DNA of 45,092 nt. It comes from Promethearchaeota archaeon. GTDB lineage: Archaea; Asgardarchaeota; Lokiarchaeia; Sigyniarchaeales; SOKP01. The notes under the pieces were generated by a model. That model had not been told where the DNA came from. It saw only the letters and a list, made by a program, of their open reading frames with translations, and did no database searches. Below, one piece after another: positions 2,445 through 45,052 of the stretch. The stretch spans positions 1-45,092 of the forward strand of contig SDNW01000004.1 in assembly GCA_004524725.1 (NCBI GenBank), written 5' to 3'. The position numbers were made by a program, and so were the translations under genes. Numbering within the stretch: position 1 is the first letter of the stretch; each line of letters opens with the position of its first letter.

Positions 2445-2455
2445 AAATCGCTCTC

Positions 2456-3256
2456 CTATCTCACTTTCCTTTGATTGAAAGATTTTCTTAACTTTTTTAC
2501 AATTTCTTCCACAGAAGTATCTTGTTCCGTCAAACGCAAGAAGATATCCTCCAAATTAGAGCCTAATCTATCTGCTTGGCGGCTGAGTTCCTCGATAGTA
2601 CCAATTCCCACAATCTTACCTTTATTAATTATTGCGATTCGATCGCATAAATCTTGCGCAATCTCCATAATATGAGTGGAAAAAAGCACCGAACCGCCCT
2701 TATCAATTTGGATATCCATAATCTCTTTTATTACTCGTACGGATTTTGCATCTAATCCTGCAATAGGCTCATCTAAGATAAGTAAATCCGGATCATGAAG
2801 GATAGAAGCGACAATTTGGATTTTTTGCTTATTTCCATGGGACAGGGTTGCGATAAGTTGCTCATAATACTCAAGAGCACCTAAACTTTCTAAGTATTCC
2901 TTAGCACGCTCGGTTGCATTATCCGGATCTAATTTTCGAATGGAGGCAATAAAATTAAATAAATCTTTTGGTGTTAATGATTTAAAGATCAATGGCTCTT
3001 CAGATACATATCCAATATTTTTTTTAATCTCTACCTCATCTTTTTCAGGATCATACCCCATAATGCTAATATTTCCCTCATTAGGTTCGAGTAAACCTAA
3101 TAATAATTTAATAGTGGTAGTCTTACCCGCACCGTTTGGACCTAATAACCCAAAAATCTCTCCCTTATGCACATCAAAGTCAATTCCGTTTACTGCTTTG
3201 ACGTCTCCAAAGAACTTTTTTAAGTTACGAACAGATATGATTTCATTATTAATCAT
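2456..3256 (-). CDS. ABC transporter ATP-binding protein (ABC-2/CcmA-like exporter)
   Basis: Walker A GPNGAGKTT, signature LSHGNKQK, Walker B LILDEP, H-loop STH. Confidence 0.95.
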   Translation of the reverse strand: MINNEIISVRNLKKFFGDVKAVNGIDFDVHKGEIFGLLGPNGAGKTTTIKLLLGLLEPNEGNISIMGYDPEKDEVEIKKNIGYVSEEPLIFKSLTPKDLFNFIASIRKLDPDNATERAKEYLESLGALEYYEQLIATLSHGNKQKIQIVASILHDPDLLILDEPIAGLDAKSVRVIKEIMDIQIDKGGSVLFSTHIMEIAQDLCDRIAIINKGKIVGIGTIEELSRQADRLGSNLEDIFLRLTEQDTSVEEIVKKLRKSFNQRKVR

Positions 3257-3455
3257 AATTTTATCAATTTTAGCTAAATTTTCGATAATTTATTATATTT
3301 ATTATAAAATATATTTGTATATACTTTTCTATATTAGTAAATATTTAAATCTTTTTATTACTAGCATAGTTTCTTAAAGCCTCATAAAACTGAAAATCTT
3401 GAAATAAATACTGTCTATTTAAAAAATATATTTATATATATTCAAATTAGCTCTC

Positions 3456-4403
3456 TTATTTTTCTTTCTGTGTGACAATAATTATGATTGATAAAATAAC
3501 AATTAAAGTACCTATTAAGTGAAAGATAGTAAACACTTCTCCCAGGAAAATAGTAGCAAATATAGCCGTTATTATAGGTGTGGGAGATAATATAATAGTT
3601 GCTTTTGAAACATCAAGATAAGATAACGTTTTATACCAACAAAACAATCCCAATCCATAAACCAAACCCATAGTTATATAAAATATCTGATTGAGTGGAT
3701 CAAATAAAAGAAAAATATTTTCAAAGGGAAAAAAGATAAAGTAAGTAGAAATTAAGATTATCCCACTTATCAAATTCCTAAGAAAAACCATTTGTATAGC
3801 AGTAACCTCATTTTTATTAAGTATTGGTTTAGTAATAGTGTGTCCGAACATCCATAGGCATGCAATAAATAATAATATAAGTACTCCAAGAACGATATCA
3901 GAATTAAAATTGATAAGATTAAATCCTTTTGTTATTGCTAATATCAGTCCAAAGAATAAAATTATAGAAAAAACAATTTGGAGTTTGGTAACTCGTTCTT
4001 TAAGAATCAAAAATCCAAATAAGATTCCAAAAAATACCGTAGTTTTTTGAGTCAATGAACCATTAATCGCTTCAGCTAGACCATACCCAATAAAAAAAAG
4101 CAGTTGATTTATACCGAATATAACTCCTATAAAGATGAAGAACCACAGATTCTGTTTCCACATTGCTATTAAACTAGTTTTTCCTTCAGAGCTATTTTCG
4201 GGAGAATTTCCTTTGTTACGATTGATCTTTCTCTCCACAAAAATCAATGGAAAGAAAATTGCAGCCTCTATTAGGCAAGTCATTGCGGCAAAAATAAAGG
4301 AATCAAGACTTTTAGGGCGAGCAATCGCAATAATAGGCTGTAGTCCTACAAAAAATACACCTAATACCCCAAAAAGGAGTCCCTTTTTCCTATCATTAAT
4401 CAA
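3456..4403 (-). CDS. DMT/EamA family permease
   Basis: ~10 hydrophobic segments, two EamA repeats (FLILKERV; TIFLGEVF..HLIG). Confidence 0.9.
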   Translation of the reverse strand: MINDRKKGLLFGVLGVFFVGLQPIIAIARPKSLDSFIFAAMTCLIEAAIFFPLIFVERKINRNKGNSPENSSEGKTSLIAMWKQNLWFFIFIGVIFGINQLLFFIGYGLAEAINGSLTQKTTVFFGILFGFLILKERVTKLQIVFSIILFFGLILAITKGFNLINFNSDIVLGVLILLFIACLWMFGHTITKPILNKNEVTAIQMVFLRNLISGIILISTYFIFFPFENIFLLFDPLNQIFYITMGLVYGLGLFCWYKTLSYLDVSKATIILSPTPIITAIFATIFLGEVFTIFHLIGTLIVILSIIIIVTQKEK

Positions 4404-4453
4404 GATAAATAAAAAAACACTTTAATGATTAAAAATGTTTAGTTCTCCAAGTT

Positions 4454-5410
4454 TTAAGCAGAAATCTTTTCTTTTTCTCTTACAATCATTACAATAGAGA
4501 AAATGATAACCAACAAACCGATCAAATGATATATTGTAAATACCTCCCCTAAGATTATAAACGCAAAGAATGCTGTAATTATCGGAGTGATTGAATTAAT
4601 TATTCCTGCTTTCCCTATATCAATATAGGATAAAGTTTTATACCAAAAAAATAGACTAAATCCATAATCCAAGCCCATTAAAATGAAATAGAAGAAATTA
4701 AGTGGATCTACTACAATCCAAAGATTTTCTAAAGGGAAAATTATAATATAAATAAATAATAATATGATTCCACTAAATAGGTTTCGGAAAAATACAATTT
4801 GAGTAGAGAATAATTCATTTTTATTTAGACCAATCTTGGTCAGCGTATGGATAAATGTAAATATAGCAACACTTATGATTAATATTATGACCCCCATATT
4901 GAATTCAAGTGAAATAAAATTCCCTTTACTTATTGCTATAAATAATCCAAGGAATAAAGTCATTGAAAAAATTATTTGTGTTTTTGTTATTCTTTCCTTA
5001 AGGATAAGAAAGCCAAATAATAAAGCAAATATTATCTCGCTTTTTAAGGCTAATGCACTCGGAATTGCTTTTGCCAATTCAAAACCAATAAATAGTAGGA
5101 TTGGGACTATACTGAAGGATATTCCAATTATGATAAGAAGTATTAAATTTTCCTTTTTTTTCCATCCATTTAACTGAGATTGAAATTTCATTGAATCTCC
5201 CGGATATTGTAATATATTTTTCTTTAACTTTTTTCTTTCAAGAAAATATAATGGAAAAAATATTGATACTTGAATAATAGCGCTCATCGCAGCAAAAATG
5301 TAGGGATCAATAATAGAAGGCCTTGAATTGGAAATAATAGGTTGTAATGAGATTAAAAAGACACCTATTACTCCGCATAGTATCCCCTTTTTTAAATTAT
5401 TGCTTACCAT
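4454..5410 (-). CDS. DMT/EamA family permease (tandem paralog)
   Basis: Same architecture and shared motifs (LQPII, FLILKER.TK.QI, WYKTLSY.D, LGEVFTI.HLIG) as 3456-4403. Confidence 0.9.
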   Translation of the reverse strand: MVSNNLKKGILCGVIGVFLISLQPIISNSRPSIIDPYIFAAMSAIIQVSIFFPLYFLERKKLKKNILQYPGDSMKFQSQLNGWKKKENLILLIIIGISFSIVPILLFIGFELAKAIPSALALKSEIIFALLFGFLILKERITKTQIIFSMTLFLGLFIAISKGNFISLEFNMGVIILIISVAIFTFIHTLTKIGLNKNELFSTQIVFFRNLFSGIILLFIYIIIFPLENLWIVVDPLNFFYFILMGLDYGFSLFFWYKTLSYIDIGKAGIINSITPIITAFFAFIILGEVFTIYHLIGLLVIIFSIVMIVREKEKISA

Positions 5411-5474
5411 AATATATGAAAGAAAAAATAAAATTTAGAATCTTTCATTGTGTCTTTTATTTTGCAAATGTTTC

Positions 5475-5849
5475 TTACTCAAGAACCGCAATAGCATTAA
5501 TCTCAACTAACATCGCCGGTATCGGTAAATTAGATACCTCAACAGTAGTCCTTGAGGGATAGGCTTTAGAAACATTATTCTCCTCAAAAAAACTTTTATA
5601 AGCATTATTCATTTTGCCGAAATCTCCCATATTTCTTAAGTATACTGTTGTTGCTACGATATGTGAAACCTTTCCTCCAGCCGTTTTTAAAATTTCTTTG
5701 ATGTTATTTAACGCTTGAAAAGTCTGTTCACTAACATCTGAAGACTCTTCTGGCCATCCTTGACCAGAAACATAAAGAGTGTTATCAACTTTTATTCCTG
5801 GACTATAGGGACCCACTACTGGAGTCCCTGGATTAATTATTTCCTTCAT
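5475..5849 (-). CDS. RidA/YjgF/YER057c family enamine/imine deaminase
   Basis: GPYSPG, LYVSGQ, catalytic Arg in YPSRTTV, C-terminal VEINAIA. Confidence 0.92.
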   Translation of the reverse strand: MKEIINPGTPVVGPYSPGIKVDNTLYVSGQGWPEESSDVSEQTFQALNNIKEILKTAGGKVSHIVATTVYLRNMGDFGKMNNAYKSFFEENNVSKAYPSRTTVEVSNLPIPAMLVEINAIAVLE

Positions 5850-5995
5850 AATTTAAAAGATTTCCATTTTTTAGGTAATTAAATATCCCAATTAATTTAT
5901 TCATTTCTAAGGGTCAGAAAATTGGACAATACTGTTAAATAGGATCCTAACTTCAATGTTTATACTCATATTGAATTTTATATGGTGAAATCCTT

Positions 5996-6298
5996 ATGGG
6001 AAAAATAATGACAATTGGGTGGTATCCACCCCATAAAGCCAAGGAGTTAATAAAAGTTTATAGTTCTAAAGATAAACCAGCTTATCCCGACTTTTTAAAG
6101 AAAATTCAGCACCTTGCTACTGTAAAGGAAGATGGACAATGGAAAAATTATGCTGTCTATGAATTCCCTGATGAAAAATATTCAGAAGCTATGAAAGCAC
6201 TCATAAAAAGGTATACACTCTATACTAGCGTCGAGGGTTATCGATTTATAGCCGAATTTGTAATGGATGCTCAAGATGCGATGAAGTTAGCATTTTAA
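5996..6298 (+). CDS. Small hypothetical protein (possible dimeric alpha/beta-barrel-like fold)
   Basis: 100-aa ORF filling an intergenic gap with GGTG RBS-like sequence upstream; fold is a guess from the alternating beta/alpha pattern. Confidence 0.7.
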   Translation: MGKIMTIGWYPPHKAKELIKVYSSKDKPAYPDFLKKIQHLATVKEDGQWKNYAVYEFPDEKYSEAMKALIKRYTLYTSVEGYRFIAEFVMDAQDAMKLAF

Positions 6299-18508: not shown

Positions 18509-20479
18509 ATGGTAGAAGCAAAGGTTGCTAAAGATATCGAGGAAATTCGAATTTTCGTTGCTGTCTGTCAATGAGGTATAAATATTGCGGAAATAATAGA
18601 TACAAAACAATTAGCAGAGTTCTCAAAATCATTACCTAACGTTGTTGAGGCTCTAGATTACATAAGTCTCTGTACTGAAGCAGGAGCAGAGTTTATTAAG
18701 GAAAAGATGATAGAAAACAATGCAAATCGATTGGTAGTCGCATCTTGTACTCCAATTACACATGAACCTGTCTTTAAAAGTGTTCTTGAGGGTATGGGGC
18801 TTGATCCATCGTTTTTAGAATTTGTCAATATTCGAGAACATTCTAGTTTAGTACACAGAAAAGATAAACCTGGGGCTCAAAGAACCGCTGAAGATGCGAT
18901 TAGATCGGGCGTTGCTCGTGCTGCAGTACTAGAAAAAATTATGGTAAAAGAAGTAGATATTACCAAAAAAACATTAGTTATTGGTGGTGGGGTGGCGGGA
19001 TTATCTGCAAGTATTGATTTAGCTGAGGAAGGATTTGAGGTATATCTTGTAGAAAAAAGTCCTACTATTGGTGGGAAAATGGCGATGCTTGACCGAACAT
19101 TCCCCACAGATGACTGTAGTATCTGAATTCTCGGTCCTGTGATGCTCGAGGCTGCAAGAACTCCAAGATTAAACATTTATACTTATAGTGACGTGGAGGA
19201 TGTTTCTGGATTTGTGGGAAATTTTAAGGTAAAGGTCCGTAAAAATGCTCGTTACGTTAATAATGATTGCAATGGATGCGGATCTTGCTTTGATGTATGT
19301 CCTGCATATGGGTATGATGAGTTTAATGAAGGAATGAATCCACGGAAGGCAATATATCTCTCTTTTGCCCAAGCAGTCCCTTCAATGGCTCAGATCGATA
19401 TGAATCGATGTATCAAGTGTGGATTATGCCAAAAAGTCTGTGAGGTTAATGCGATTGACTTTAACCAAGAAGAAGAAGTCATAGAATTAGAAGTTGGCTC
19501 AATTATCGTGGCTACTGGTTGGGATGAATATAAACCAGAAACCGGCTATCTGGGATATAACAAATATCAAAACGTTATAACTCAAATGAAACTCGAACGC
19601 ATACTAGCGCCAAATGGACCTACAATGGGTCATCTTGTGCGCCCATCAGATGGTAAAACGCCTAAAAAAATCTTATTTATTCAATGTGTGGGTTCAAGGG
19701 ACTTAAATAAGCAAACATATTGTAGTGCCGGTGTTTGTTGTATGATTTCTATAAAAAATACCAAACTCATTAAACAACATTATCCAGATGCGGATATCAC
19801 TGTAGCTTATATGGATATCAGAGCTGCGGGAAAAGATTATGAAGAGTATTTTACGGCTTCGAGAAAGGAGGGTATTAAATACGTACGGACTAATGTCTCA
19901 AAACTTTATGAAGCCCCCGAAACTGGTAATTTAAAAGTTATATTGCAAAATACTTTGAGTAGTACGGGTCTGAAAGAGTTTGAATACGACTTAGTAGTCT
20001 TATCGTGTGCGATGGTTCCTGCGATTGGAGTGGAAAAAATCGGAAAAATATTAAAACTTGAAAATAGCCGTGATGGGTTCTTTAAAGAATTCCATTCCCG
20101 ATTGAATCCTATCGATACTAAAATACCTGGAATTGTACTTGCTGGGGTAGCTCAAGGTCCAAAATCTATATCTGAATCAATATCACAAGGAAGAGCTGCG
20201 GCATCATCACTAGCAAGGCTCATGAGTAAAGACAAATACCGAATTCTGCTGATCCGTGCTACTGTCGATAAAGATAAATGTGCTAAATGTGGTTTATGTG
20301 AACTAAATTGTCCCTATGACGCAATAGCATTGAATCCTGACGGTGCTGAAGTAAATGAAATTTTATGTCGAGGTTGTGGGTCGTGTCTTGCAAATTGTCC
20401 ATCAGAAGCTATAACACTACGATATTATCGAGAACCACAATATGAAACACAAATTGATGCTATATTAGAGGAAATCTAA
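18509..20479 (+). CDS. hdrA: Heterodisulfide reductase subunit A, selenoprotein with two in-frame UGA (Sec22, Sec206); 656 aa
   Basis: Single frame from ATG 18509: RIFVAVCQ-UGA(18572)-GINI matches HdrA CxCGxNI, and FPTDDCSI-UGA(19124)-ILGP matches FPTxDCxxCILxP. Also VVASCTP, NIREH, IGGGVAG, ferredoxin motifs, QCVGSR, GVAQGPK. Confidence 0.93.
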
Positions 20480-26165: not shown

Positions 26166-27665
26166 ATGGAAATTAACCCAGAAGAGATTTATAAAAATTT
26201 TATCAATAAAAAGATAGATAGATCTACCCTCATTGATCAATTAATCTCAGTGATCGAAAATAGTATTGATATACCTCAGAGAATTACATCAGTCCACATC
26301 CTATCAAATTTAAACGCAAAAGATCAAAAAATATACAAACTTATTGAAAATTTAGCTATCTCTGATTCAAACAAGTATGTGAGACTAACTGCATTAAAAT
26401 ATTTGGGTGATAATTTCATAGATTACGCGTTAGAACCGATGAAATGGGCGTTCCATCATGAAAAAGCCCTTCGATGTTTATTAGTTATAGTATACACTTT
26501 AGGAAATATAAATACTCAACCTTCACGAGATTTTTTAATATCGATCCTAACAAGCATAGACGTTCCTGCTTTTAAGAGGCATATTGAAAAGATTTTAGAG
26601 TCTGAACATATCAATGATTATCAAAATCATGAACTATCCAACATTATAAAAGATTTCTTAATCGTTAATGAACTAGAAACAAAATACGGTCATATTGAAT
26701 TCAAGATTAAAAACGCTAGAGTTTGTGAATTAGATCTCTCAGATATTAGTGCTCACGTTTTTGGTTGGAATGCACTAAATAAGTTTCCATATTTTATAAC
26801 TGAGTTAGAATCGCTTGCATTTTTATATCTAAAATTCAATCGTCTAACGAATTTAGCTAACAACATTGGAAAATTAGTTAATTTAAAAACAATTGATTTA
26901 AGTTATAATAAAATTAAAAGCTTGCCTAACTCAATTGGGTCACTAAAGTCGCTTAAAACCTTAAATTTACGGTATAATCAATTAGAGTCACTCCCATCTT
27001 CAATTAAAAGACTTCAAAATCTTGAAAAACTTGACTTAAGATCCAATAACCTTCTTTCCCTTCCTAGTGATTTAAATAAACTGAAAAAACTTGAATTATT
27101 GGATGTACATGGAAATAGGTTGAAAGGTGCTCGTATAAATTTACTTTCATTAAATTCATTGAATTATTTGGAATTAGGATTAAATAATTTGGATGAATTA
27201 CCTCATTGGGTTAAGAATGTAAAGGATCTTAAGAGATTAGGGTTGGGAGGTAATAGAATCAAAAAACTTCCTAAGTGGATTGGCAGTTTTCACTCTTTAC
27301 AAGAATTAAATTTATACGATAATGAAATCTTAATCCTCCCAGACTCGATTGGAAAATTGCAAAACTTAGTTCGATTAACATTATGGAATAATCAACTAAA
27401 AGCCCTTCCTCGTTCATTTTCTTTGTTATCAAAGCTGCAAGTTTTAAACTTAAGCTGGAATAAATTTGTAAAATTACCAGAGTGGATTGGAAATCTTAAA
27501 TCACTGGAAATATTAACTTTATGGGGTAATAAATTAGAAGAACTCCCAGAATCAATAGCTCAATTAAAATCACTTAAAAAATTAGATTTGAATTTTAATA
27601 AAATACAAGTTGTTCCCGAATTTTTAAGACAATTAGAAAAAGAAGGATTAATTATTTATAAATAA
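26166..27665 (+). CDS. HEAT-like N-terminus + leucine-rich repeat protein (~12 x 23-aa LRR)
   Basis: LIENLAISDSNKYVRLTAL; repeats LxxLxLxxNxLxxLPxxIGxL. Confidence 0.92.
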   Translation: MEINPEEIYKNFINKKIDRSTLIDQLISVIENSIDIPQRITSVHILSNLNAKDQKIYKLIENLAISDSNKYVRLTALKYLGDNFIDYALEPMKWAFHHEKALRCLLVIVYTLGNINTQPSRDFLISILTSIDVPAFKRHIEKILESEHINDYQNHELSNIIKDFLIVNELETKYGHIEFKIKNARVCELDLSDISAHVFGWNALNKFPYFITELESLAFLYLKFNRLTNLANNIGKLVNLKTIDLSYNKIKSLPNSIGSLKSLKTLNLRYNQLESLPSSIKRLQNLEKLDLRSNNLLSLPSDLNKLKKLELLDVHGNRLKGARINLLSLNSLNYLELGLNNLDELPHWVKNVKDLKRLGLGGNRIKKLPKWIGSFHSLQELNLYDNEILILPDSIGKLQNLVRLTLWNNQLKALPRSFSLLSKLQVLNLSWNKFVKLPEWIGNLKSLEILTLWGNKLEELPESIAQLKSLKKLDLNFNKIQVVPEFLRQLEKEGLIIYK

Positions 27666-27697: not shown

Positions 27698-29074
27698 ATG
27701 GAAATAAGCCCCAAGGTTCTTTATAAGAACTTTATCAATAAAATCATTGATGCGGAGTCTTTAATTGAGCAGTTATCAAGTCTAATTGAAAATAGCAGAA
27801 ACATTAAGATTCGTGTTCTAAGTATCCAAACTTTGGGGAAAATAGAATTAAATTCTCTAATTCCGGTTAAATCTCAAAATTCATTATTTCATCTGTTAGA
27901 AAATCTACTCATTTCTGATTCCAATGAAATAATAAGAAATGAAGCAGCCTTGATTCTAATTAAGTTGTTTAAGAAACGATCGCTAGCACCTATGAAATGG
28001 GCTCTCCTTCATGATGAGTCTGCGATATGTTTAGAAACAATTCATCAATCGATTATGGAAATAATTAATGATCTTAAGAAAAGTAATGAGGATGAGTCCT
28101 ACTCTACTTTGAAAAGTGAAGTACTAGCAATCGAGGATAAGGATTTCAAAATCGCGATTCAAAATATGATTCATCGCAATGATAGTATTATTTCGAAAAC
28201 AACTCTTATCCATATTTTAACCAATTATTTTACGCTATTATTCTTGAAAAAAGTATATTGGCGTTTAAAGTATCGAATTAAGGATGCAACTTTAGTTGAA
28301 TTAGACTTTAGTTTTAAAGTTTTAAGTAATTTACCTCGCGCTATTAGATTCCTTCAATCATTAAAAAAGTTAACTCTAAAATATAATCAAATACTAAAGT
28401 TACCCGAATGGATTGGAGAACTTTCCTCTTTGGAACACCTAAACCTGAATATTAATAATATTGCTAAATTACCAAATTCAGTCTCTATGCTTAATCAATT
28501 AGAGGAATTGGCCTTATGGAAAAATGAACTTGAAGAACTTCCTGAGAGTATTGGGAATTTGATAAATTTGAGAAAATTAAATTTACGACTCAATCAGCTA
28601 AAATTTTTGCCAGAATCTTTAGGAAATTTAATAAAACTCAAAGAGCTAGATCTCCATGATAATCGATTGTTATTTCTTCCAAGATCGATAAAATATATGA
28701 AATCGTTAGAAGTATTGAATTTAAGCTGGAATACATTAAAAAATCTCCCCGAGGAAATCTATGATTTATCCTCTCTTAAAATATTAGATTTAGGAAGAAA
28801 TGAATTACAAACCATCTCACCATCAGTTAGTCGTCTTAATTCATTAGAAATTTTGAATTTAAGTGAAAATAAATTAATTTCGTTACCGCATACTATTGGA
28901 AATTTGAGTTCACTAAAGATACTAAATCTATCTCGAAATCAATTAAAAGTAATTCCTAATTCCATTTATTCTCTCCCCTTATTAGAAGAATTATATTTAG
29001 TCGATAATCAAATAGAAGAGATTCCTTCAAATATACAAGAATTAGAAAATCGTGGTCTTAAAATTATATCTTAA
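27698..29074 (+). CDS. HEAT-like N-terminus + leucine-rich repeat protein (tandem paralog)
   Basis: LLENLLISDSNEIIRNEAA, PMKWA; ~10-11 23-aa LRRs. Confidence 0.92.
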   Translation: MEISPKVLYKNFINKIIDAESLIEQLSSLIENSRNIKIRVLSIQTLGKIELNSLIPVKSQNSLFHLLENLLISDSNEIIRNEAALILIKLFKKRSLAPMKWALLHDESAICLETIHQSIMEIINDLKKSNEDESYSTLKSEVLAIEDKDFKIAIQNMIHRNDSIISKTTLIHILTNYFTLLFLKKVYWRLKYRIKDATLVELDFSFKVLSNLPRAIRFLQSLKKLTLKYNQILKLPEWIGELSSLEHLNLNINNIAKLPNSVSMLNQLEELALWKNELEELPESIGNLINLRKLNLRLNQLKFLPESLGNLIKLKELDLHDNRLLFLPRSIKYMKSLEVLNLSWNTLKNLPEEIYDLSSLKILDLGRNELQTISPSVSRLNSLEILNLSENKLISLPHTIGNLSSLKILNLSRNQLKVIPNSIYSLPLLEELYLVDNQIEEIPSNIQELENRGLKIIS

Positions 29075-37122: not shown

Positions 37123-38094
37123 ATGTTAGATCTCGATCCAGAAATTTTGTATCACAGGTTCTGCAACAAAGAAATCGATAAATTAACTCTAGTAAATTCT
37201 CTTTTATTATTGATTGAAGAATCCATCAATGAGGATCTTAGGATTAGTGCGATAAACCAATTAAGAAGATTGGGCATTACTAGTGATCATCTTTTCAATG
37301 TGATGGAAAATCTAATGATTTCTGATACCAATGGAAAAGTAAGAAACGCTGCTGCGCGCTATATTAGCTATTTGTATTTTGAAAAGTCTTATAATATCGT
37401 GAATTGGGCAATACAATATGAAGAGTCCTATGAATGTATTCTTACAATGGTAAATACTCTGAAAAAAATGCAATCAGAGGATTCCAAACGGCTTTTAATA
37501 TCTCAGATTTCTAAGATTTTGAAACCAAGTACCCATTCAACCGAAAAACCATACATATTCCAAAAATATAGAAAAAGGATGAAAAAGGTATTCAAAGAAA
37601 AAGATATTGGAGATTTTACCGTAGAAGAATTAGCAGAAATTTTGATTAATTATAAAACAGTATCATTTCTAGCACTTACTTACCCTAATTTCTATTTTGA
37701 TTTAGATATTTCTAATGGGTTAGTCTCAGAAGTAGACCTTGCTGATTATCTCCAATATGAAGTCAAAGGAACTCCATTTGGCTGGAAAAATAATATAGCC
37801 TCTCTTAAAAAGATAAAAGGACTTAACAATTTTAAGTACGTCAAGAAATTAGATTTATCTAATAATCTTATAGAGGATTTAAGTGCTTTAACTGGTTTTA
37901 AAAATTTAGAGACCGTTTGCTTAGCAAATAATAAGATATCTGATCCCAAAAATATAAAATATCTCAATGATCTTCCTAATATTCGTTATATCGACTTAAC
38001 TGGGAATAAAATTGCAAAATCAGTTTCCTATAAGGATTTTAAGCCAAATGTGAAAGTAGTTTTAAAGCGGTTTGATGAACAAGTTGAATTTTAA
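37123..38094 (+). CDS. HEAT-like N-terminus + short LRR protein (third family member)
   Basis: LDPEILY..F.NKEID, MENLMISDTNGKVRNAAA; C-terminal LDLSNNLI, LANNKI, LTGNKI. Confidence 0.88.
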   Translation: MLDLDPEILYHRFCNKEIDKLTLVNSLLLLIEESINEDLRISAINQLRRLGITSDHLFNVMENLMISDTNGKVRNAAARYISYLYFEKSYNIVNWAIQYEESYECILTMVNTLKKMQSEDSKRLLISQISKILKPSTHSTEKPYIFQKYRKRMKKVFKEKDIGDFTVEELAEILINYKTVSFLALTYPNFYFDLDISNGLVSEVDLADYLQYEVKGTPFGWKNNIASLKKIKGLNNFKYVKKLDLSNNLIEDLSALTGFKNLETVCLANNKISDPKNIKYLNDLPNIRYIDLTGNKIAKSVSYKDFKPNVKVVLKRFDEQVEF

Positions 38095-38132: not shown

Positions 38133-39494
38133 TTAGACAGACGTAAATTCAGTTTTCTTACCGATGCCAAATAATCCTAAGGCTACACCTAATTCTTTAT
38201 GATCCTTAGCATATTCTCTCACAGGAATGCCTTCCATGACAGCATCAATTGCTTGTCTAAAAGCTTTTGCTCCAGCTATTGGGCCATCTGGGTGTGCATG
38301 TATTCCTCCTCCGCTACCAATCATGATATTTGTTCCTAAGTCTTGAACACATTTTTCAACTAAACTCTGAGTGATCCCGCCGGAGGGCATCGGTAAAGTT
38401 CTTTTAATATGAGGTGCATTCCGCATAGGCATAACCATTTGTCTAGCAGTTTCTTTGAACCTATCTGCAGTTGTGGGTGCTTTACCATAAGGAGCTGGAT
38501 GTACAATCGTATCACAACCTGCCAGTCTTCCAAACTTTCCCAGAATTAATGGACTTGAAATACCACTAACGGGATCTTGGTAAAATGCACCTGCTAAATC
38601 CATATGGCCTAAGATAGGTACCTTAACGGAGGGGTCTTCTGCTAACTTTCTCAAGGCAGAATATCCTGTAGAGATGTGATTAACCATTATCGCATTAGCT
38701 CCGTGTTCTTGTACTATGTCTGCTAATTCAAACATGCGTTCTACTCTATCAGTTATATTCACTGTATAAAGGGTTTTTTCTCCCTTCTCCGAGTCTGCTT
38801 TATCCAAAGCTTCCATGAAAGCGGTTACTCGTTCTGTGATCGGATTAAAATCTACATCTGCGATTAGTTCATCATCCTTAATTATATCACAACCGCCTAC
38901 TGCGGCTTTATAAGCGAGATCTGCACCAATCTTAGGATCAGAGTAGACGCAAGGCTTTATCATATTATTTAGTAGAGGACGCTCTTTTACACCTAAAAGT
39001 TTCCTTATACCAACATCTCCAAATTTAGGACCTTTAAATTCTTTTAAGAAAGCTTTCGGAAATCTGACATCAACCATTTTAAGTGGTCCACCCATAGAAA
39101 TATTTCCGTATATAGTAGTAAACAGCATTGGAAATTGAGGCTTAAAATTTAAAGGAAACGCTATTTGTACTACATATTGATGCATTTTGGGATTTCCAAA
39201 GAAGTCTTCGGCTCCTTCATATTCGAAATCTGGGAATCTCCACCACCCAATTACTTTTGCTACATGTTTTCTTCTTTGTTCAGGTGTTTCTGCGGGAACA
39301 GGGACGAATGTACCTGTTGATTGTTCAACACAAACTGCCTGCATCATATAGAACGCATCCATTTTCCTATGAAGCATTGCTGTATATGTAGCAATGATAT
39401 GCGTTTCATAATCGATATCTTCGGGAAGAGCATTGGGTTTTGAAAGATTTTCCAAATCAAAATCGTCAAATTCGGTTGGAATTTTTTCTTCCAT
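38133..39494 (-). CDS. RuBisCO-like protein (form IV); GTG 39503 alternative start
   Basis: EQSTGT, GPKFG, IIKDDE, YGK loop 6, PSGG, GGGIHAHPDG; IKPC instead of IKPK and GHMD instead of HRA. Confidence 0.88.
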   Translation of the reverse strand: MEEKIPTEFDDFDLENLSKPNALPEDIDYETHIIATYTAMLHRKMDAFYMMQAVCVEQSTGTFVPVPAETPEQRRKHVAKVIGWWRFPDFEYEGAEDFFGNPKMHQYVVQIAFPLNFKPQFPMLFTTIYGNISMGGPLKMVDVRFPKAFLKEFKGPKFGDVGIRKLLGVKERPLLNNMIKPCVYSDPKIGADLAYKAAVGGCDIIKDDELIADVDFNPITERVTAFMEALDKADSEKGEKTLYTVNITDRVERMFELADIVQEHGANAIMVNHISTGYSALRKLAEDPSVKVPILGHMDLAGAFYQDPVSGISSPLILGKFGRLAGCDTIVHPAPYGKAPTTADRFKETARQMVMPMRNAPHIKRTLPMPSGGITQSLVEKCVQDLGTNIMIGSGGGIHAHPDGPIAGAKAFRQAIDAVMEGIPVREYAKDHKELGVALGLFGIGKKTEFTSV

Positions 39495-39541
39495 TATAGT
39501 CACATTTTTCTTTTAATTTAATATAATAAGTTAAATCATTC

Positions 39542-39566: not shown

Positions 39567-39650
39567 AGAAGTAAGCGGATTTGAATCTTATTCCTTGAAA
39601 AATTGATTAAAAAATAAGATAAAATATAAAAAAAAATAAAAAAATTAAAA

Positions 39651-40754
39651 TTATTCTTTAGATTTAGCAGCTGCCTTTAGATTAATATAAGTATTTTCCA
39701 AAACGTTAAGATATTCGATTAAAACCTGATCTGCTTTTGACTTCTTCTCATACTCTTCCTTAATGATGTTAATCAGATATTTCGGAAAGATGAGTTCCAC
39801 ATAAAAATCAGATAGAAGAGCATAATATTCATTGTTTCTGTCATCTTGAAATACTTGAATCATTTGGCTCTCCCAAAGCATCTTTAATACCTCATCAACA
39901 TCGTCAACGCCTTTCTTCTTGAGTTTTTCAAGATCATTTCGGGTGACGATTGCTGTACGTAATAAGCGTAGAGTTTCATAGACTTGAGGGTTAATTAGCA
40001 CGTCGATTATGGTGAGATTATCGTTTTCTGATGGCCTATAATTCTGGAAAAACTTTTTGGTTTCAGTTCGATAATCTTCTACTAGTTGTGACGGTAAACC
40101 TCTATCAGCAGGATCTTTTAAAAGTTGGACAGGAGGAATCCTCATCATTATAATATCATTGGTAAGAAAGATCAATTCCGAGGGCATTCCTTTAACCGAC
40201 GCTTCTTTGATTATTTCACGTTTAATCAACTCAATTAATACTCCTTCTAAATCAACGAATCCTTGTTTATATCTGTCTTTTAACCATACCATCAATTCCG
40301 ATTTGGATACAACTCCTTCTTCTCGTAAGCGATTGATGATCATACGTTTAATCTCATCTTGATAAGTCATCGCTAAGCGTTGTTCGGCATTTAATGTTGG
40401 ATATACTGATAACCTTCTGAAAAGTGAGGGAATTAATTGAAGATAAGCCTCGTCCTCAAGATTTTGAAGGATAATTCTTGAGGTATCTGCGAGACCACCC
40501 TCGTAAGCATCAGGATCATCATCCAAATTCAAGAGAAGAAGTATATAGTATCCCTTCTCTGGTCCGGTATAATATGATGCAATGTTTAACGAACCAACCA
40601 TTAAACTAATCATGCCCGATTCTCCGCTATATTCGTGCGTGCTATATACTTGCATTAAAGTTTTATCCGTGACCGTAATTTCTTCCGGATATTTCGCTAA
40701 AATTTCAGTTCCGACACGTTCATCCCATTTCATTAATACTAATCCTACTGGCAT
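39651..40754 (-). CDS. Cytoplasmic protein with N-terminal longin/uDENN-like domain and C-terminal winged-helix-like repeats (NPRL2/DENN-like)
   Basis: MPVGLVLMKWDERVGTEILAKYP resembles the uDENN/NPRL2 start (hhhhxFDxxxGPxhxxxxP); later wHTH-like segments (VSKSELMVWL...VLIELIKREII; VTRNDL...VLKMLWESQMIQVF). Confidence 0.65.
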   Translation of the reverse strand: MPVGLVLMKWDERVGTEILAKYPEEITVTDKTLMQVYSTHEYSGESGMISLMVGSLNIASYYTGPEKGYYILLLLNLDDDPDAYEGGLADTSRIILQNLEDEAYLQLIPSLFRRLSVYPTLNAEQRLAMTYQDEIKRMIINRLREEGVVSKSELMVWLKDRYKQGFVDLEGVLIELIKREIIKEASVKGMPSELIFLTNDIIMMRIPPVQLLKDPADRGLPSQLVEDYRTETKKFFQNYRPSENDNLTIIDVLINPQVYETLRLLRTAIVTRNDLEKLKKKGVDDVDEVLKMLWESQMIQVFQDDRNNEYYALLSDFYVELIFPKYLINIIKEEYEKKSKADQVLIEYLNVLENTYINLKAAAKSKE

Positions 40755-43700
40755 TAGAAATTACCTCCTTCTGATTCTGGTATTTCTGGCATTTTTTTAC
40801 CTTTTTTCCGTTCAACACCAAGTATATCATTTAAGGATAACCCTAACATCTCCCATCTATCTCCAAGTTCTTTGACGATATATTCTTCTTTTGATGGATA
40901 TAATAGTGAATCTGAGATTGATTTTCTGCCTTTTATATTCTTACTCATCGCTCTCACTCTCTTGACGAAAGTAGGAATTCTCGCTTTTTGTATAGTACGA
41001 TATGCTACAAGGCTTCCGACCACTGCCACTGCTGCTCCAACAATCATTAAGAAGTAGAACATTGGAAAACCAGGGAAAATTTCTACTAATCCAACAACAA
41101 TTGATAGATCAACTTCTTCAGAATAGTAGTACTCATTATCCAACGTGATGGTAGCTCCAATGGTTTGCGATAAGAAAAATGCATCTGGGAAAATTGTTGC
41201 ATCAATCGTTATTGAGTAAGTACCGTCACCTTCATCGGTAAAATCAAATGATTGCCCTTGGAGGGTGATAGATACATCCGCACCGATAATTGCACTGCTA
41301 TTTATCGTATCAGTTAAATCTAAAGATATCCTTAAATCATTTCCAGAAACTGTAGTAATAATATTGCCTAATGGAATGTTAACATCGAATTCGCGCGGAA
41401 TTATGTTCAGTATTAAGATTCCTCCTCTCTGAGCATAATTTTCCTTTTCAATATTAAAAATAATTGTATAAACTGCGATGTCTTGAGTTTCCGTGTCAAA
41501 ATCTAGAGCATATAATCCGTTTCCTAAGTCATCTAAGACATCAGCACCGCTATCAACAACACTTCCACTTACTTCTTTAGTCCATTCATAGGTTTTCAAT
41601 TCACTTCCTCCTAATCCTGAACCTGAACTTTCTTCTTCATAAGTAAAGTAAAAAATACTTTCTTCTCTAAATGCGACGTCGACTGTCTTGTATATACCAA
41701 CAGAATCATTAATTAATGTTTTGATGGCAAGTACATTAATTTCAACAAATATAGTCTGATCTTGATAATTCTGCCTGTCAGCAGTGATTTGAAGTGTATA
41801 TGAGTCGCTTCTTGGAAATAGGGAGGAAACCAATTCAAATCTGTAGGTTCCTGATGCGCCAGAAGGACTAAGAGATCCAACCAAAGTAGGAATACCAAGC
41901 ACGTAATATTCTACGTCAGCGCCAGTTATGGGATTATTTCCGCCAAAACTTACGTCCGTATAGCTTACCTCCATTATTAATGATTCACCCCAATAGGCTG
42001 TTAATTCGGTTTCATTGCCGACTAAAGTTGATGTTTTCGGATCAAGAATGAATGAAGTTGACACCTGCTTGGTTATGAATCCTGCTTTCGTAGCAGTAAC
42101 CTCAACAATATAATCATTTTCAGATACCCACTCCTCTCCACTAGGTTCAACTGGGTTTGCGGTGTTTATACTTAAATTATATAATCCACCTCCTAAGGGA
42201 ATGAATGACAATGTTAATGTATTAATTTTCTCAACTCCTGAAAAAACATTATATCTAACCATTGCTCCATCCATTGGATAATACATCGTTTCATTTTCCA
42301 CGTAAGTTAAATTGATTTGGAAATTAAGTGTATCACCTAACATTTGGTTAAAATCTGGATCAGGAAAAACTAAAAATTCCATGTTGGTTTCAAAACTCGA
42401 ACCAAAAGTTGCATTAACGATTGATGAGTTTGCTGTATGAAAGTAGAATGTTGTATTAACATTGCTGATTAGATCGAGATCTCCAACAGCCACAACGTTG
42501 GTTGAAGGGATTTCAAACCACTCAATTGAAAATGTTATGTTTCCATCTTGAGGATTAGTAAAATTAGCCCATCTGAAAATTAGTTCACCGTCATCATTAG
42601 CGTTTTCAGAACCAATAAGTTCTGACCCAGAACCATCATCCATCCAAAATGTTACTTTTGCTCCACTCAATCTACCTTTATAGTTATTTTGAGCGGTATC
42701 ATTGAATCGATTTAAGGTTAATGCCAATGAAGTCATCTGAATATTGGTAAACTCTAAGTAATATACACCAAATGTATCGACATTCGTTTCGTTCAGCTCG
42801 ATTTGTTTTGCTGTAGTCACAGTTAATGTTTTTCCATATCGAACATACGATACATTAACATCATATACACCTCCTTCTAAGCGATTAAAAATAGTTCGCC
42901 CATTTTCGTCGGTATCTTGATTCCAGCTCATTCCATAATCTGATGCATTCCATACGGTTACGGTGGCTTCTGGCACTAGATTATTATCGATATCGGTGAC
43001 ATTTACATCTAAATTATAAAAAAAACTATCTTGTTCATACATGTAGATGTTTGGCTCCTCTTTTAAAGTAAGTAGCATATTATCGAAATAATTAATCATA
43101 CCAGTATCATCTAAACTACCAGAAGTATTAACACTTCCAGCTAGTTCCCAGAAATTGATATTAAGCTTATAGGATTCATTTCCAACACTATTATCAAGAT
43201 CATTAATGGAGCCTGGTAAGAATTGCACTACTCCGCTATCATAGAGAACATCTCCTCTAAAGTATGAAATGCTCATATGAGCAGGATCTGATACTTCAAA
43301 GGCTTCTATAAACAAACCAATAGCATCTTTAGAACTATCAGGGGCATTATGGACAACTGTATAATTTTCTGAAACGAATCCTGCGGAAGTTATGTCCTTT
43401 TGCAGATTTCCATCATAAACATATAGTAATTCAGAATGATCGGATACACCGGTAAAATTAAAGTTGGTGTTTAAAGCAAACATACTGTCAGTTGTGTAAT
43501 TGAACTCGTTTTCGAAGTAAATCCTACGCTCTATACTCCATAAATTGTAGTCATAATAGAAAGTACAGATATCTTGGGTATGCATATCAAATGCGGTTGT
43601 CCAATCGATTTGATATCTGGAAAACACATCTCCAGTTATCAATGGGGTTATGATTTGAATAGTTGATGGCATAGAACCTAATTTGAAATCTTCTACTTCG

Positions 43701-45052
43701 TCATCAGAAAGATATTTATTATAAACCGCAACCTCATCGATTACTCCTTTAAAATATTGGTTGATGTGTTCAGAGGCTCCAATTGTGAACGGACTCCCGT
43801 CCGCTTCATCTAAATCTGAAGCTCCATTCCATGCAGAGCTTGAAATCCATGGTAGGTTATTAATTTTCACTTCTGCTGTACCACTATCATATCTGAAAGC
43901 TATAAAATACCATCCTCCTGATGTAGTTATTGTTCCTGCGGACCCAAAATCAGCTTGGGTATCTCTTGACTCGGTATCTAAATACACATGAATATTACCT
44001 TCATTATTAACTCCGATTTCGAAGTTATCATTTTTAGGATCACTTGCTTTTGCTGCAATTACATTCTCAGTTTGATGGTTCGTAGCGCCTCCACTAAGAC
44101 TACTGGGATTTATCCAAGCACAGAAAGTAAATTCCGTACTTGCACCATCTAAAGGATCTCCAACATCTTCCAGTCCATTAGCATAACTCAAAAAATCATT
44201 TCCATCAAATTCTAATCCAGATCTTACTTTTCCATCGGTAAAAGTTGGATCCCCGGTAGGAGTTCCATCAGGCTCATTTCCTGAAGAATCTGAATAAGAA
44301 TCCTCAAAATGTGCCAAGAATTTTAAACTTGGATCCGCTAATTCTTTCTCTGGAGATAGAGAATCATCCAAATGGAAATCTAATCCTTGTCTTACGAGTT
44401 GGGTACATGCCAAACCAGTTTTCAATACCACTTGATATTCCGTTCCAACTGTGACCGTAAGGGTCCCAGAAGAATAAATACTGGCGAAGTTGGTATTATA
44501 ATCTATTGTTTCTATATCGTCATCATTTTCATTATAATAGAGAAAGTAAGTCATATTTGAATTCGCAGAGACGTTTGCAATAAAGGTTATTGTACAAGAA
44601 TCAACATAATCGCCAGTACTTGGCGTACTATTCCACATTTGCATGGGAATTGGGTCACTCCATTCATCGTTGCCTGTAGCATTAAAACTAACAAGTCTTT
44701 CTGTATTTCGATAATGTTCATTAGCTCGAAAAGTGAAATAAACATCAATTGGTTGATATCTATCTACTCCTTCAGTTTCTTCTAAAACAAATCCTATGCG
44801 ATAACGATAAGTTTTATTCCACCAAATTGAAAGATCATATTTATCTCCAATGTGAAATACATCAGATGGTTTTGGTTCAAGCTCTTCAAAATCTTGCGGA
44901 TTATCAACTATGTCTTCGAAATCTGTTGGTGACTCAACTGTAGTTGGTGAAACTCCGGGATTTAAGTTAAATATCGAAAAGCATGTCGGAATTATAAAAA
45001 GTATCAATAAGATAGCTAAAGTTGTTAATTTTTGTCTTAATTTTGTATTCAT
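40754..45052 (-). CDS. Large (1432 aa) cell-surface glycoprotein: signal/TM, DUF2341-like, LamG/concanavalin-A-like, Ig-like repeats, C-terminal TM and cytoplasmic tail
   Basis: Hydrophobic N-terminus; WWNKTYRYR...YFLYYN; LamG motifs DSSGN, GLEFDG.D, FTFCAWINP, WYFIAF.YD, TIGA...FKGVIDEVAVYNKYLS; >20 NxS/T sequons; TM FYFLMIVGAAVAVVGSLVAY followed by a basic tail. Confidence 0.88.
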   Translation of the reverse strand: MNTKLRQKLTTLAILLILFIIPTCFSIFNLNPGVSPTTVESPTDFEDIVDNPQDFEELEPKPSDVFHIGDKYDLSIWWNKTYRYRIGFVLEETEGVDRYQPIDVYFTFRANEHYRNTERLVSFNATGNDEWSDPIPMQMWNSTPSTGDYVDSCTITFIANVSANSNMTYFLYYNENDDDIETIDYNTNFASIYSSGTLTVTVGTEYQVVLKTGLACTQLVRQGLDFHLDDSLSPEKELADPSLKFLAHFEDSYSDSSGNEPDGTPTGDPTFTDGKVRSGLEFDGNDFLSYANGLEDVGDPLDGASTEFTFCAWINPSSLSGGATNHQTENVIAAKASDPKNDNFEIGVNNEGNIHVYLDTESRDTQADFGSAGTITTSGGWYFIAFRYDSGTAEVKINNLPWISSSAWNGASDLDEADGSPFTIGASEHINQYFKGVIDEVAVYNKYLSDDEVEDFKLGSMPSTIQIITPLITGDVFSRYQIDWTTAFDMHTQDICTFYYDYNLWSIERRIYFENEFNYTTDSMFALNTNFNFTGVSDHSELLYVYDGNLQKDITSAGFVSENYTVVHNAPDSSKDAIGLFIEAFEVSDPAHMSISYFRGDVLYDSGVVQFLPGSINDLDNSVGNESYKLNINFWELAGSVNTSGSLDDTGMINYFDNMLLTLKEEPNIYMYEQDSFFYNLDVNVTDIDNNLVPEATVTVWNASDYGMSWNQDTDENGRTIFNRLEGGVYDVNVSYVRYGKTLTVTTAKQIELNETNVDTFGVYYLEFTNIQMTSLALTLNRFNDTAQNNYKGRLSGAKVTFWMDDGSGSELIGSENANDDGELIFRWANFTNPQDGNITFSIEWFEIPSTNVVAVGDLDLISNVNTTFYFHTANSSIVNATFGSSFETNMEFLVFPDPDFNQMLGDTLNFQINLTYVENETMYYPMDGAMVRYNVFSGVEKINTLTLSFIPLGGGLYNLSINTANPVEPSGEEWVSENDYIVEVTATKAGFITKQVSTSFILDPKTSTLVGNETELTAYWGESLIMEVSYTDVSFGGNNPITGADVEYYVLGIPTLVGSLSPSGASGTYRFELVSSLFPRSDSYTLQITADRQNYQDQTIFVEINVLAIKTLINDSVGIYKTVDVAFREESIFYFTYEEESSGSGLGGSELKTYEWTKEVSGSVVDSGADVLDDLGNGLYALDFDTETQDIAVYTIIFNIEKENYAQRGGILILNIIPREFDVNIPLGNIITTVSGNDLRISLDLTDTINSSAIIGADVSITLQGQSFDFTDEGDGTYSITIDATIFPDAFFLSQTIGATITLDNEYYYSEEVDLSIVVGLVEIFPGFPMFYFLMIVGAAVAVVGSLVAYRTIQKARIPTFVKRVRAMSKNIKGRKSISDSLLYPSKEEYIVKELGDRWEMLGLSLNDILGVERKKGKKMPEIPESEGGNF

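Follow-up and report, generated by a model that had tools for sequence, protein, structure and literature searches.

The question raised by this locus is what a giant archaeal surface protein does with a small cytoplasmic protein whose start codon overlaps its stop codon. The window, that is, the whole stretch of DNA analysed, comprises 45,092 nucleotides (nt) of contig SDNW01000004.1 of a Promethearchaeota archaeon (assembly GCA_004524725.1; 2.4 Mb, 183 contigs, 70.7% complete). Two open reading frames (ORFs) on its minus strand form the pair. The first (40754–45052) encodes a single-pass surface protein of 1432 amino acids (aa) (P0001, the receptor), and the second (39651–40754) encodes a 367-aa cytoplasmic protein with a longin domain and tandem winged helices (P0002, the adaptor). 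On balance the two are probably a receptor-adaptor unit, in which the winged-helix (WH) and helical part of the adaptor would clamp the tail of the receptor, leaving the acidic longin domain free to serve as a small-GTPase platform. The GTPase part of this reading is tentative and has somewhat less than an even chance of being correct. The evidence is computational and consists of the anatomy of the two proteins, the longin and two-WH fold, the retention of both pair and tail across relatives, the fused forms and the gene neighbourhoods.

Both ORFs lie at exactly the coordinates given in a preliminary description of this DNA, and the ORF list and translations reproduce the overlap through TAATG that it described. 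On the minus strand, the junction reads ...GAAGGAGGTAATTTCTAATGCC. The last A of the TAA stop codon (40756–40754) is the first base of the ATG start codon (40754–40752). The Shine-Dalgarno sequence GGAGGT, also named in that description, is read directly at 40768–40763, with an 8-nt spacer to the ATG of the adaptor. Together these translational coupling signals occupy 40752–40768 (minus strand). T-runs resembling an archaeal terminator are present directly 3' of the adaptor stop codon (39608–39650, minus strand), where they may act as a candidate terminator. Because these T-runs directly follow the adaptor, receptor and adaptor appear to make up a unit of two genes. Only 40 nt of contig precede the receptor ATG, and therefore any gene upstream of the receptor is cut off from view.

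The adaptor has 812 homologues at E up to 0.001, of which the best 120 are 81–100% identical, and 359 among representatives of 50%-identity clusters. The relatives are labelled Promethearchaeota, Loki-, Thor-, Hod- and Helarchaeota. Alignment A1, which contains 54 diverse homologues with 23–50% identity, was used for the AlphaFold model of the adaptor and for a search of 201 genomes of the phylum. The adaptor family is present in 148 of the 201 genomes and in 69 of the 85 high-quality ones. All sampled genomes of Asgard families f1 (40/40), f7 (43/43) and f12 (19/19) contain it, and the A1 search did not find it in f5 (0/21), f14 (0/7), f16 (0/5) or f22 (0/10). At 28 of the best 30 loci, one of which is the window, a tail-bearing ORF ends at the adaptor start; the remaining two have less than 300 nt of upstream sequence. 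Twenty more distant regions contain 22 adaptor genes. A giant receptor lies directly upstream of four of these (gap −1 to 2 nt), directly downstream of six (family f7, gap −8 to 1 nt) and 85 nt downstream of one. One adaptor is fused in a 2661-aa protein, one is truncated at the locus edge, five adjoin an Arf-like GTPase gene and four have neither partner. At one of these last four loci (L040), the tail search finds a 1613-aa tail-bearing frame two genes downstream. The adjacency of the two genes, on which the module proposed in the preliminary description depends, is thus conserved. It appears in reversed order in another Asgard family and as a fusion in some relatives.

In the 50%-cluster search, the top eight rows are proteins of 588–2548 aa with the adaptor at the C-terminal end. 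In eight of the nine long forms examined, the membrane helix, tail, linker and adaptor are in one chain; the ninth is below the hydropathy threshold. In the window's own genome, the tail hidden Markov model (HMM) retrieves three proteins at E <1e-8, all of which are receptor-type and in operons with an adaptor gene: the receptor of the window and two tandem receptors ahead of the adaptor paralogue on contig C87. The adaptor itself has seven paralogous matches in this genome. A quick, midpoint-rooted tree was built from 26 rows, with only the adaptor portion used for fused and long forms. Receptor-linked adaptors fall into three or more well-supported clades of this tree, with GTPase-linked adaptors in between. 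No order of events is drawn from this tree.

These arrangements bear on a different role for the adaptor, as a dedicated biogenesis, targeting or sorting factor that would hold the tail of the giant protein during insertion, glycosylation or placement, without signalling. Translational coupling implies that the two proteins are produced together, and in two genomes described below (G038 and G006) several receptors with one and the same tail apparently share a single adaptor. Longin domains are also found in the signal recognition particle receptor and in the sigma, mu and zeta coat subunits that read cargo tails, with structural matches at Z 9.3–10.3. The fusions, in contrast, keep the adaptor covalently on the mature protein, which is more in keeping with a lasting cytoplasmic module than with a chaperone that acts transiently, and a role would still have to be found for the Arf-like GTPase that recurs as a neighbour. 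A biogenesis factor is unlikely, and the sorting-adaptor version of this explanation merges with the receptor-adaptor unit.

Two further gene arrangements occur around adaptor paralogues of the same genome. On contig C87 (strand-oriented 1808–3443, 3445–5071, then 5092–6220), two tandem tail-bearing surface proteins of 541–544 aa precede one adaptor paralogue. Paralogues on C87 (L002 1–1472, minus strand) and C158 (L005 1792–3237, plus strand) have a protein of about 490 aa 22–32 nt after each. This second recurrent neighbour consists of an N-terminal TrmB-type winged helix-turn-helix (wHTH) domain (E 1.5e-9) and a long coiled coil.

The receptor contains a single membrane helix at about residues 1329–1350 (41003–41068, minus strand; hydropathy scan), preceded by FPGFP. 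The helix is followed by a basic cytoplasmic tail of 82 aa, residues 1351–1432 (40757–41002, minus strand), with the pattern RIPxxVK(K/R)V...I...L. This is congruent with the one C-terminal membrane helix and tail of about 80 aa described previously. Alignment A3 is shallow and contains 13 tails, from 12 loci plus the window. In this alignment, tails from families with adaptors 23–50% identical align without large gaps. The consensus is (R/K)IPxx(I/V)K(K/Q)(I/V), followed by a conserved I and, about 30 residues further on, a conserved L. Position P10 is invariant, and I23 and L53 are conserved at 90% or more. The conserved module is 55–80 residues long.

In the complex prediction of tail with adaptor, the ipSAE is 0.78 (runs 0.77, 0.79 and 0.78), compared with 0.02 for the best of three controls. 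This mark is reached by 116 of 157 solved complexes and by 2 of 215 mismatched pairs, a calibration that holds only roughly because own alignments were supplied. At least 98% of contacts are common to the runs, with a partner pLDDT of at least 74. Predicted contacts involve adaptor residues 200–241 and 318–360 and tail residues 10–61, which form the docking segment at receptor residues 1360–1411 (40820–40975, minus strand). The lowest-error contacts involve adaptor residues 325–356. The contact list includes all three conserved tail columns (P10, I23 and L53) and five (P207, F236, Y239, P324 and L352) of the 16 nearly invariant adaptor positions. The longin domain is outside the predicted interface. 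Net charges are complementary, with −10 for the longin domain and −7 for the second winged helix (WH2) against a K/R-rich tail. From these models, the tail quite likely docks on the C-terminal helices of the adaptor, as the partnership put forward in the preliminary description would require.

A cleaved sorting signal, which would have left the tail without such a partner, is not what these residues resemble, since they form a conserved module of 55–80 residues with predicted adaptor binding. A PGF-CTERM signal was considered and rejected, because 82 conserved residues continue beyond FPGFP and the helix. No NCBIfam sorting-signal model matches the receptor at E up to 1, and the archaeosortase/exosortase family PF09721 has no match in the genome, which is 70.7% complete.

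Outside the membrane, the receptor is less uniform. The N-terminus contains a hydrophobic signal-like segment (hydropathy scan). It is followed by a WWNxxYxYR motif at residues 77–85 (44798–44824, minus strand), which is common to the giant partners in other Asgard families. In the form WWN(S/V/E/G)(S/T)(Y/F)xYR, it is found in the N-termini of the giant proteins at L044–L046, L048 and L050–L052. The Pfam scan assigns no family to this region of P0001. A LamG, or concanavalin-like lectin, domain is present at residues 304–453 (43694–44143, minus strand; PF13385 Laminin_G_3, E 1.8e-20, 74.1 bits against a cut-off of 27.6), and the same-genus orthologue also matches Laminin_G_3 (E 1.1e-10). Matches to beta-sandwich and Ig-like families occur around residues 680–750 and 1242–1298, all of them below cut-off (Ig_DR_A0283-like, PF24025; Big_1, PF02369; Invasin_D3). 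The CarboxypepD_reg match (PF13620) at residues 684–743 (42824–43003, minus strand) has E 9.9e-6 and 26.3 bits, below the cut-off of 32.3. Of the LamG head and Ig-like stalk described earlier, the head is therefore confirmed and the stalk is only suggested by sub-threshold matches. The ectodomain contains all 26 N-x-S/T sequons, where 17.5 are expected from composition. No PDB chain matches the receptor by sequence.

Comparison with a same-genus genome (L065, window positions 39610–44829) separates the two sides of the membrane. The DNA of the adaptor and tail is 76.6% identical over 1482 bases, whereas the receptor ectodomain is alignable over 318 bases only, at 66%. The outside therefore varies while the inside is kept. 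From this comparison, the ectodomain appears to diverge fast or to be exchanged.

The AlphaFold model of the adaptor has a pLDDT of 95.6 and a pTM of 0.89 and consists of a longin domain, two winged helices and a helical hairpin. The longin domain (residues 1–120; 40395–40754, minus strand) has strands at residues 2–11, 15–22, 47–53, 56–62 and 69–76 and helices at 30–43, 81–97 and 104–120. This b-b-a-b-b-b-a-a order is the longin topology. In VIA-align, residues 1–120 match a Lokiarchaeal Roadblock-Longin protein (8yqg_A) at Z 12.0 (root-mean-square deviation (rmsd) 3.1, 121 aligned), the GATOR1 chain 7t3b_B at Z 11.9 (rmsd 2.7, 119 aligned) and VAMP7 (4afi_A) at Z 11.6; many further longins are within one Z unit. 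In the 54 rows of A1, the most conserved residues of the domain are W10 (49/54), D11 (43/54) and G15 (50/54), which form a W10-D11-x3-G15 hairpin, and P23 (53/54). No cDENN or dDENN part follows the longin domain; in the model and its structural matches, the following 247 residues are two winged helices and helices. The DENND1 structural matches cover model residues 1–120 only. An ESM Atlas look-up returns unnamed Asgard clusters and a wHTH-labelled cluster at a score of 0.79.

Stand-alone copies of the adaptor longin domain (129–160 aa), with the WDxxxGP motif including the proline, are also found. They occur on contig C161 of the same genome (L004 1489–1878, plus strand) and as upstream ORFs at L040 and L042. 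In family f13, stand-alone longin copies lie directly upstream of the full-length adaptor gene.

The C-terminal 247 residues, modelled separately (pLDDT 94.4), form two winged helices, a connecting helix and a helical hairpin. The first winged helix (WH1, residues 121–206; 40137–40394, minus strand) corresponds to model residues 1–83 and matches ArsR/MarR-type wHTH proteins at Z 9.8–9.2, the best being RosR (6ez1_A, Z 9.8, rmsd 2.2, 74 aligned). It is followed by a linker helix (residues 207–242) and WH2 (residues 243–323), which together occupy 39786–40136 (minus strand). In VIA-align, WH2 (residues 120–202 of the C-terminal-half model) matches ArsR 6j05_B at Z 8.6, and a PDB profile search matches residues 248–317 to the wHTH protein 1uly at E 1e-4. 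The C-terminal helical hairpin (residues 324–367; 39654–39785, minus strand) has helices at 326–337 and 342–366 and is the main predicted tail clamp. In Foldseek, the C-terminal half alone has no match at E up to 0.001. The proteins it retrieves are generic wHTH proteins, ESCRT-II, Nse1/3 and RPC subunits.

This resemblance allows the adaptor to be read as a membrane-controlled transcription regulator, with winged helices that bind DNA and a tail that sequesters it (or a fusion that tethers it) until a surface signal releases it. Each repeat resembles DNA-binding wHTH repressors at Z 8–10, and the family profile has the 1uly match. The Pfam families HTH_20, TFIIE_alpha, HTH_5, HTH_24 and TrmB are each touched by 3–6 of the 54 members (E 1e-4 to 5e-4), and a TrmB-like coiled-coil protein follows two paralogues in the same genome. 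However, the winged helices are neutral to acidic (net charge 0 for WH1 and −7 for WH2; family medians −1 and −2), and conserved positions are concentrated along the predicted tail groove instead of a recognition helix. In NPRL2/3, ESCRT-II and Nse1/3, winged helices serve protein contacts. A transcription regulator also leaves the longin domain and the GTPase neighbourhood unexplained, and this role is quite unlikely.

NPRL2 and NPRL3 (yeast Npr2 and Npr3) are the longin subunits of GATOR1/SEACIT, the GTPase-activating protein (GAP) complex for RagA/B (Gtr1), in which these two paralogues form a heterodimer bound to DEPDC5. Their layout had been proposed for the adaptor in the preliminary description. 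In a whole-chain Foldseek search with P0002, chains of GATOR1 complexes take the first five places (E 1.6e-4 to 6.8e-4), followed by Mon1-Ccz1, Fuzzy-Inturned and DENND10. The GATOR1 alignments span both proteins, with 386 columns for a 368-residue chain. The best-matching chains are apparently NPRL2/NPRL3, and their lengths of 363–408 residues fit. Within the available text of Levine et al. 2013 (PMC3747258), the NPRL2/NPRL3 layout is an N-terminal longin domain followed by two or more winged HTH repeats. The model and the Foldseek matches support this likeness at the level of architecture, but membership in the NPRL2/3 family is not supported: no sequence match exists, the longin domain has no conserved arginine, and the matches listed for the C-terminal half alone include no GATOR1 chain. 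A PDB profile search at E up to 10 contains no GATOR1 chain. The models NPR2 and NPR3, which we take to be the Pfam names for the NPRL2/NPRL3 family, are not among the 25 listed of the 66 Pfam families touched by the 54 members.

The adaptor shares with NPRL2/NPRL3 the order of longin and winged helices and, as proposed for the adaptor, membrane work beside small GTPases. It differs from them in having no detectable sequence similarity and no conserved arginine finger. A further difference is the receptor tail, to which the archaeal adaptor is predicted to bind where the two are not fused in one chain; we know of no description of receptor-tail docking by NPRL2/3. Possible roles for the adaptor are those of a scaffold, an exchange-type platform or the non-catalytic member of a pair.

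NPRL2-like longins have been described in Asgard archaea. In the available text of Liu et al. (10.1101/2020.10.19.343400), one family has the NPRL2 domain organisation and others are fused to two-component domains. In that of Rodrigues-Oliveira et al. (PMC9834061), the 'NPRL2-like longin domain' is among the enriched eukaryotic signature protein classes of Ca. Lokiarchaeum ossiferum. As far as these two sources could be consulted, such proteins are abundant, contain an NPRL2-like longin, some with an NPRL2-like C-terminal part, and are often fused to other domains. The present adaptor family is very probably among them. The text available mentions two-component fusions and does not mention a giant surface protein, a receptor tail or adjacency to an Arf-like GTPase. 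No paper on surface-receptor coupling, the conserved tail or adaptor-GTPase adjacency was found in a search that had subscription-only papers and preprint supplements outside its scope. NPRL2-like longins in Asgard archaea are thus already described, and the new element is the coupling of a longin-platform candidate GTPase regulator to a membrane receptor.

Other systems invite comparison with parts of this arrangement. The W10-D11-x3-G15 spacing of the adaptor is the same as that of C9orf72 W33-D34 ... G38-P39, and G15 lies at the start of strand 2, which is the placement of the GP motif given in the available part of PMC12290439, a study that treats Asgard longins of the FLCN/SMCR8 type. Unlike C9orf72-SMCR8-WDR41 and FLCN-FNIP, the adaptor has no conserved arginine finger and no DENN C-terminal part, and few of its family members have the proline of the GP motif (7 of 54). 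In MglB-MglA modules, a protein of the roadblock/longin superfamily is likewise encoded directly beside a small GTPase gene. The Asgard adaptor differs in adding two winged helices and a predicted receptor-tail clamp, the surface receptor is a third component, and the Asgard GTPase is Arf-like with its own N-terminal extension. AP/COPI coats and integrin-tail adaptors are functional analogies only, and no homology is claimed. The likeness to AP/COPI consists of a conserved single-pass tail, a longin-containing cytoplasmic adaptor as its predicted reader and a genomic tie to an Arf-family GTPase. The differences are that the Asgard tail is predicted to lie on the helical and WH part, not on the longin, and that no partner of the coat, clathrin-like or cytoskeletal kind was observed.

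Longin/roadblock proteins and small GTPases are found by the dozen in Asgard archaea, and the window's own genome contains 37 GTPase-like ORFs that match one query at E <1e-5. At five distant loci, the GTPases that adjoin the adaptor are 275–323 aa long, with an N-terminal extension of about 120 aa followed by a Pfam Arf domain (E 7e-24 and 4e-15; motifs GxGGVGKT, WDxAGQ and NKQD). The gaps between adaptor and GTPase at distant loci are often 35 nt or less, or the genes overlap. Adjacency was counted by cross-reading the rows listed in the adaptor search against those listed in a search with one such GTPase. Adaptor and GTPase adjoin in 5/5 genomes of f8, 5/6 of f19 and all five genomes of f12 with both rows listed. 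In the window's own family, a paralogous GTPase is within about 0.6 kb of the adaptor gene in nine genomes among the rows listed (G019, G049, G065, G113, G132, G150, G153, G156 and G192). In one genome of the same genus (G057), the order is GTPase (divergent), receptor, adaptor. In another of the same family (G138), the GTPase flanks the receptor-adaptor unit, and all three genes are on one strand.

Two near-complete genomes show a dispersed form of the same set. G038, which is in one contig, has one full-length adaptor adjoining a GTPase and four dispersed giant receptors, and G006 has one full-length adaptor adjoining a GTPase and three dispersed giant receptors. All seven receptors have a membrane helix and a tail with ARIPxII(K/R)RID. 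In these genomes, a single adaptor is thus apparently shared by several receptors and linked to one GTPase.

The same counts bear on the possibility that the pair is a structural anchor to the cytoskeleton or an envelope scaffold, without a GTPase, and that the GTPase neighbourhood is coincidental. There are dozens of small GTPases per Asgard genome, including the 37 ORFs above, and therefore chance adjacency is not negligible in the window's family. Lokiarchaeal cells also show complex surface proteins and an actin cytoskeleton, according to the available text of PMC9834061. Against coincidence, the same orthologous GTPase adjoins the adaptor in 15/16 cross-readable genomes of f8, f19 and f12, and no cytoskeletal gene was seen beside the inspected loci. 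A purely structural anchor is very unlikely. All three alternatives are less well supported than the receptor-adaptor unit.

Several observations weigh against the receptor-adaptor unit or against its comparison with GATOR1. P0002 has no sequence match in Pfam, NCBIfam or PDB and therefore no named family; in Pfam at E up to 1, the single row is eWH_GTF3C1, at a chance-level E of 0.12. The whole-chain geometry of the Foldseek matches is weak (TM 0.18–0.28, rmsd 17–24 Å), and the TM-scores are low because the domains are oriented differently. With the C-terminal half alone, GATOR1 chains are not among the best 50 listed by Foldseek and VIA-align, which is not evidence that the folds differ. The Z-score of the GATOR1 longin is tied with those of VAMP7, Ykt6, DENND1, SNARE and coat longins, and because of these ties no longin subtype is singled out for P0002. 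Of the uDENN/NPRL2-like longin start described earlier, the longin fold stands (Z 12.0), and a specific uDENN assignment is not supported over other longin types, given the ties. No column in residues 1–120 of the 54 sequences has R or K in at least 70% of rows; the best arginine-finger candidate, R13, is R in 27 and K in 8 of the 54. This argues against a self-sufficient GAP of the NPRL2 type. The proline of the 'GP' motif (P16) is present in only 7/54 adaptor rows. The docking rests on a prediction with a shallow, 13-row tail alignment. In f7 and f3, the GTPase rows listed are not adjacent to the adaptor rows listed. No GTPase gene was seen beside the pair in the window, where the contig ends 40 nt upstream, and blastn of the assembly with the same-genus locus gives only a paralogous GTPase inside contig C42, not at a contig end.

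Within the receptor-adaptor unit, the large protein would be a glycosylated single-pass surface protein with a variable ectodomain and a conserved membrane-proximal tail. The small protein would be a cytoplasmic adaptor, in which the hairpin, the linker helix and the winged-helix edges clamp the basic amphipathic tail. With the tail clamped in this way, the N-terminal longin domain, which is acidic, would remain unoccupied at the membrane. There it would most likely recruit or regulate an Arf-like small GTPase at the site of the receptor. This role of the longin is suggested because of the analogy with well-studied longin platforms and because the adaptor adjoins an Arf-like GTPase gene in other families. 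Signalling would run either as outside-in sensing or as inside-out positioning. The ectodomain presumably has a ligand and may act in adhesion or glycan sensing, and a link to the cytoskeleton may exist.

A broader form of this proposal is a phylum-wide, three-part Asgard module, with variable receptors that carry one tail, an NPRL2/3-shaped clamp and a free longin domain that engages an Arf-like GTPase with its own N-terminal extension. This form, which would make the module a prokaryotic forerunner of eukaryotic longin-platform logic, is doubtful. If correct, the module would foreshadow GATOR1-Rag and the cargo-tail/adaptor/Arf coats, where a longin platform positions a GTPase of the Arf/Rag type at a defined membrane site or switches it there. 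Through the module, local remodelling of the membrane or cytoskeleton would be coupled to contact with partner cells or substrates. If the GTPase link is true, a longin platform of the NPRL type was attached to membrane proteins before eukaryotes arose.

The receptors are candidate identities, with an intracellular connection, for the complex surface proteins on Lokiarchaeal cells that are left unidentified in the available text of Rodrigues-Oliveira et al. (PMC9834061). According to the portion available of Tran et al. 2024 (PMC10933270), operons that combine a GTPase gene with a longin or roadblock gene are generally absent from the cultured strain, and GTPase partners are therefore hard to predict. 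The present module offers three testable pairings: the tail with its docking groove, the NPRL2/3-shaped adaptor, and a specific Arf-like GTPase neighbour in other lineages.

The remaining features of the window are separate from the pair. The next gene, 147 nt downstream of P0002, encodes a RuBisCO large-chain homologue (38133–39503, minus strand). Its best NCBIfam rows are an MtnW-type enolase (E 7.7e-96, 321 bits against a cut-off of 409) and a type III RuBisCO (E 8.9e-77), and all rows are under the curated cut-offs. Three leucine-rich repeat (LRR) proteins are encoded on the plus strand at 26166–27665, 27698–29074 and 37123–38094 (LRR_8, E 2e-34, 5e-36 and 1e-7); the first also contains a HEAT-repeat match. 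At 18707–20479 (plus strand), two ORFs of 139 and 446 aa in the same frame are split by a single in-frame TGA at 19124–19126. Read through this codon, they encode a 590-aa FAD/4Fe-4S protein with the sequence ...FPTDDCSI[TGA]ILGP..., which we take to be an HdrA motif. The TGA has the appearance of a selenocysteine codon that takes the place of a Cys codon in an HdrA-like subunit of heterodisulfide reductase.

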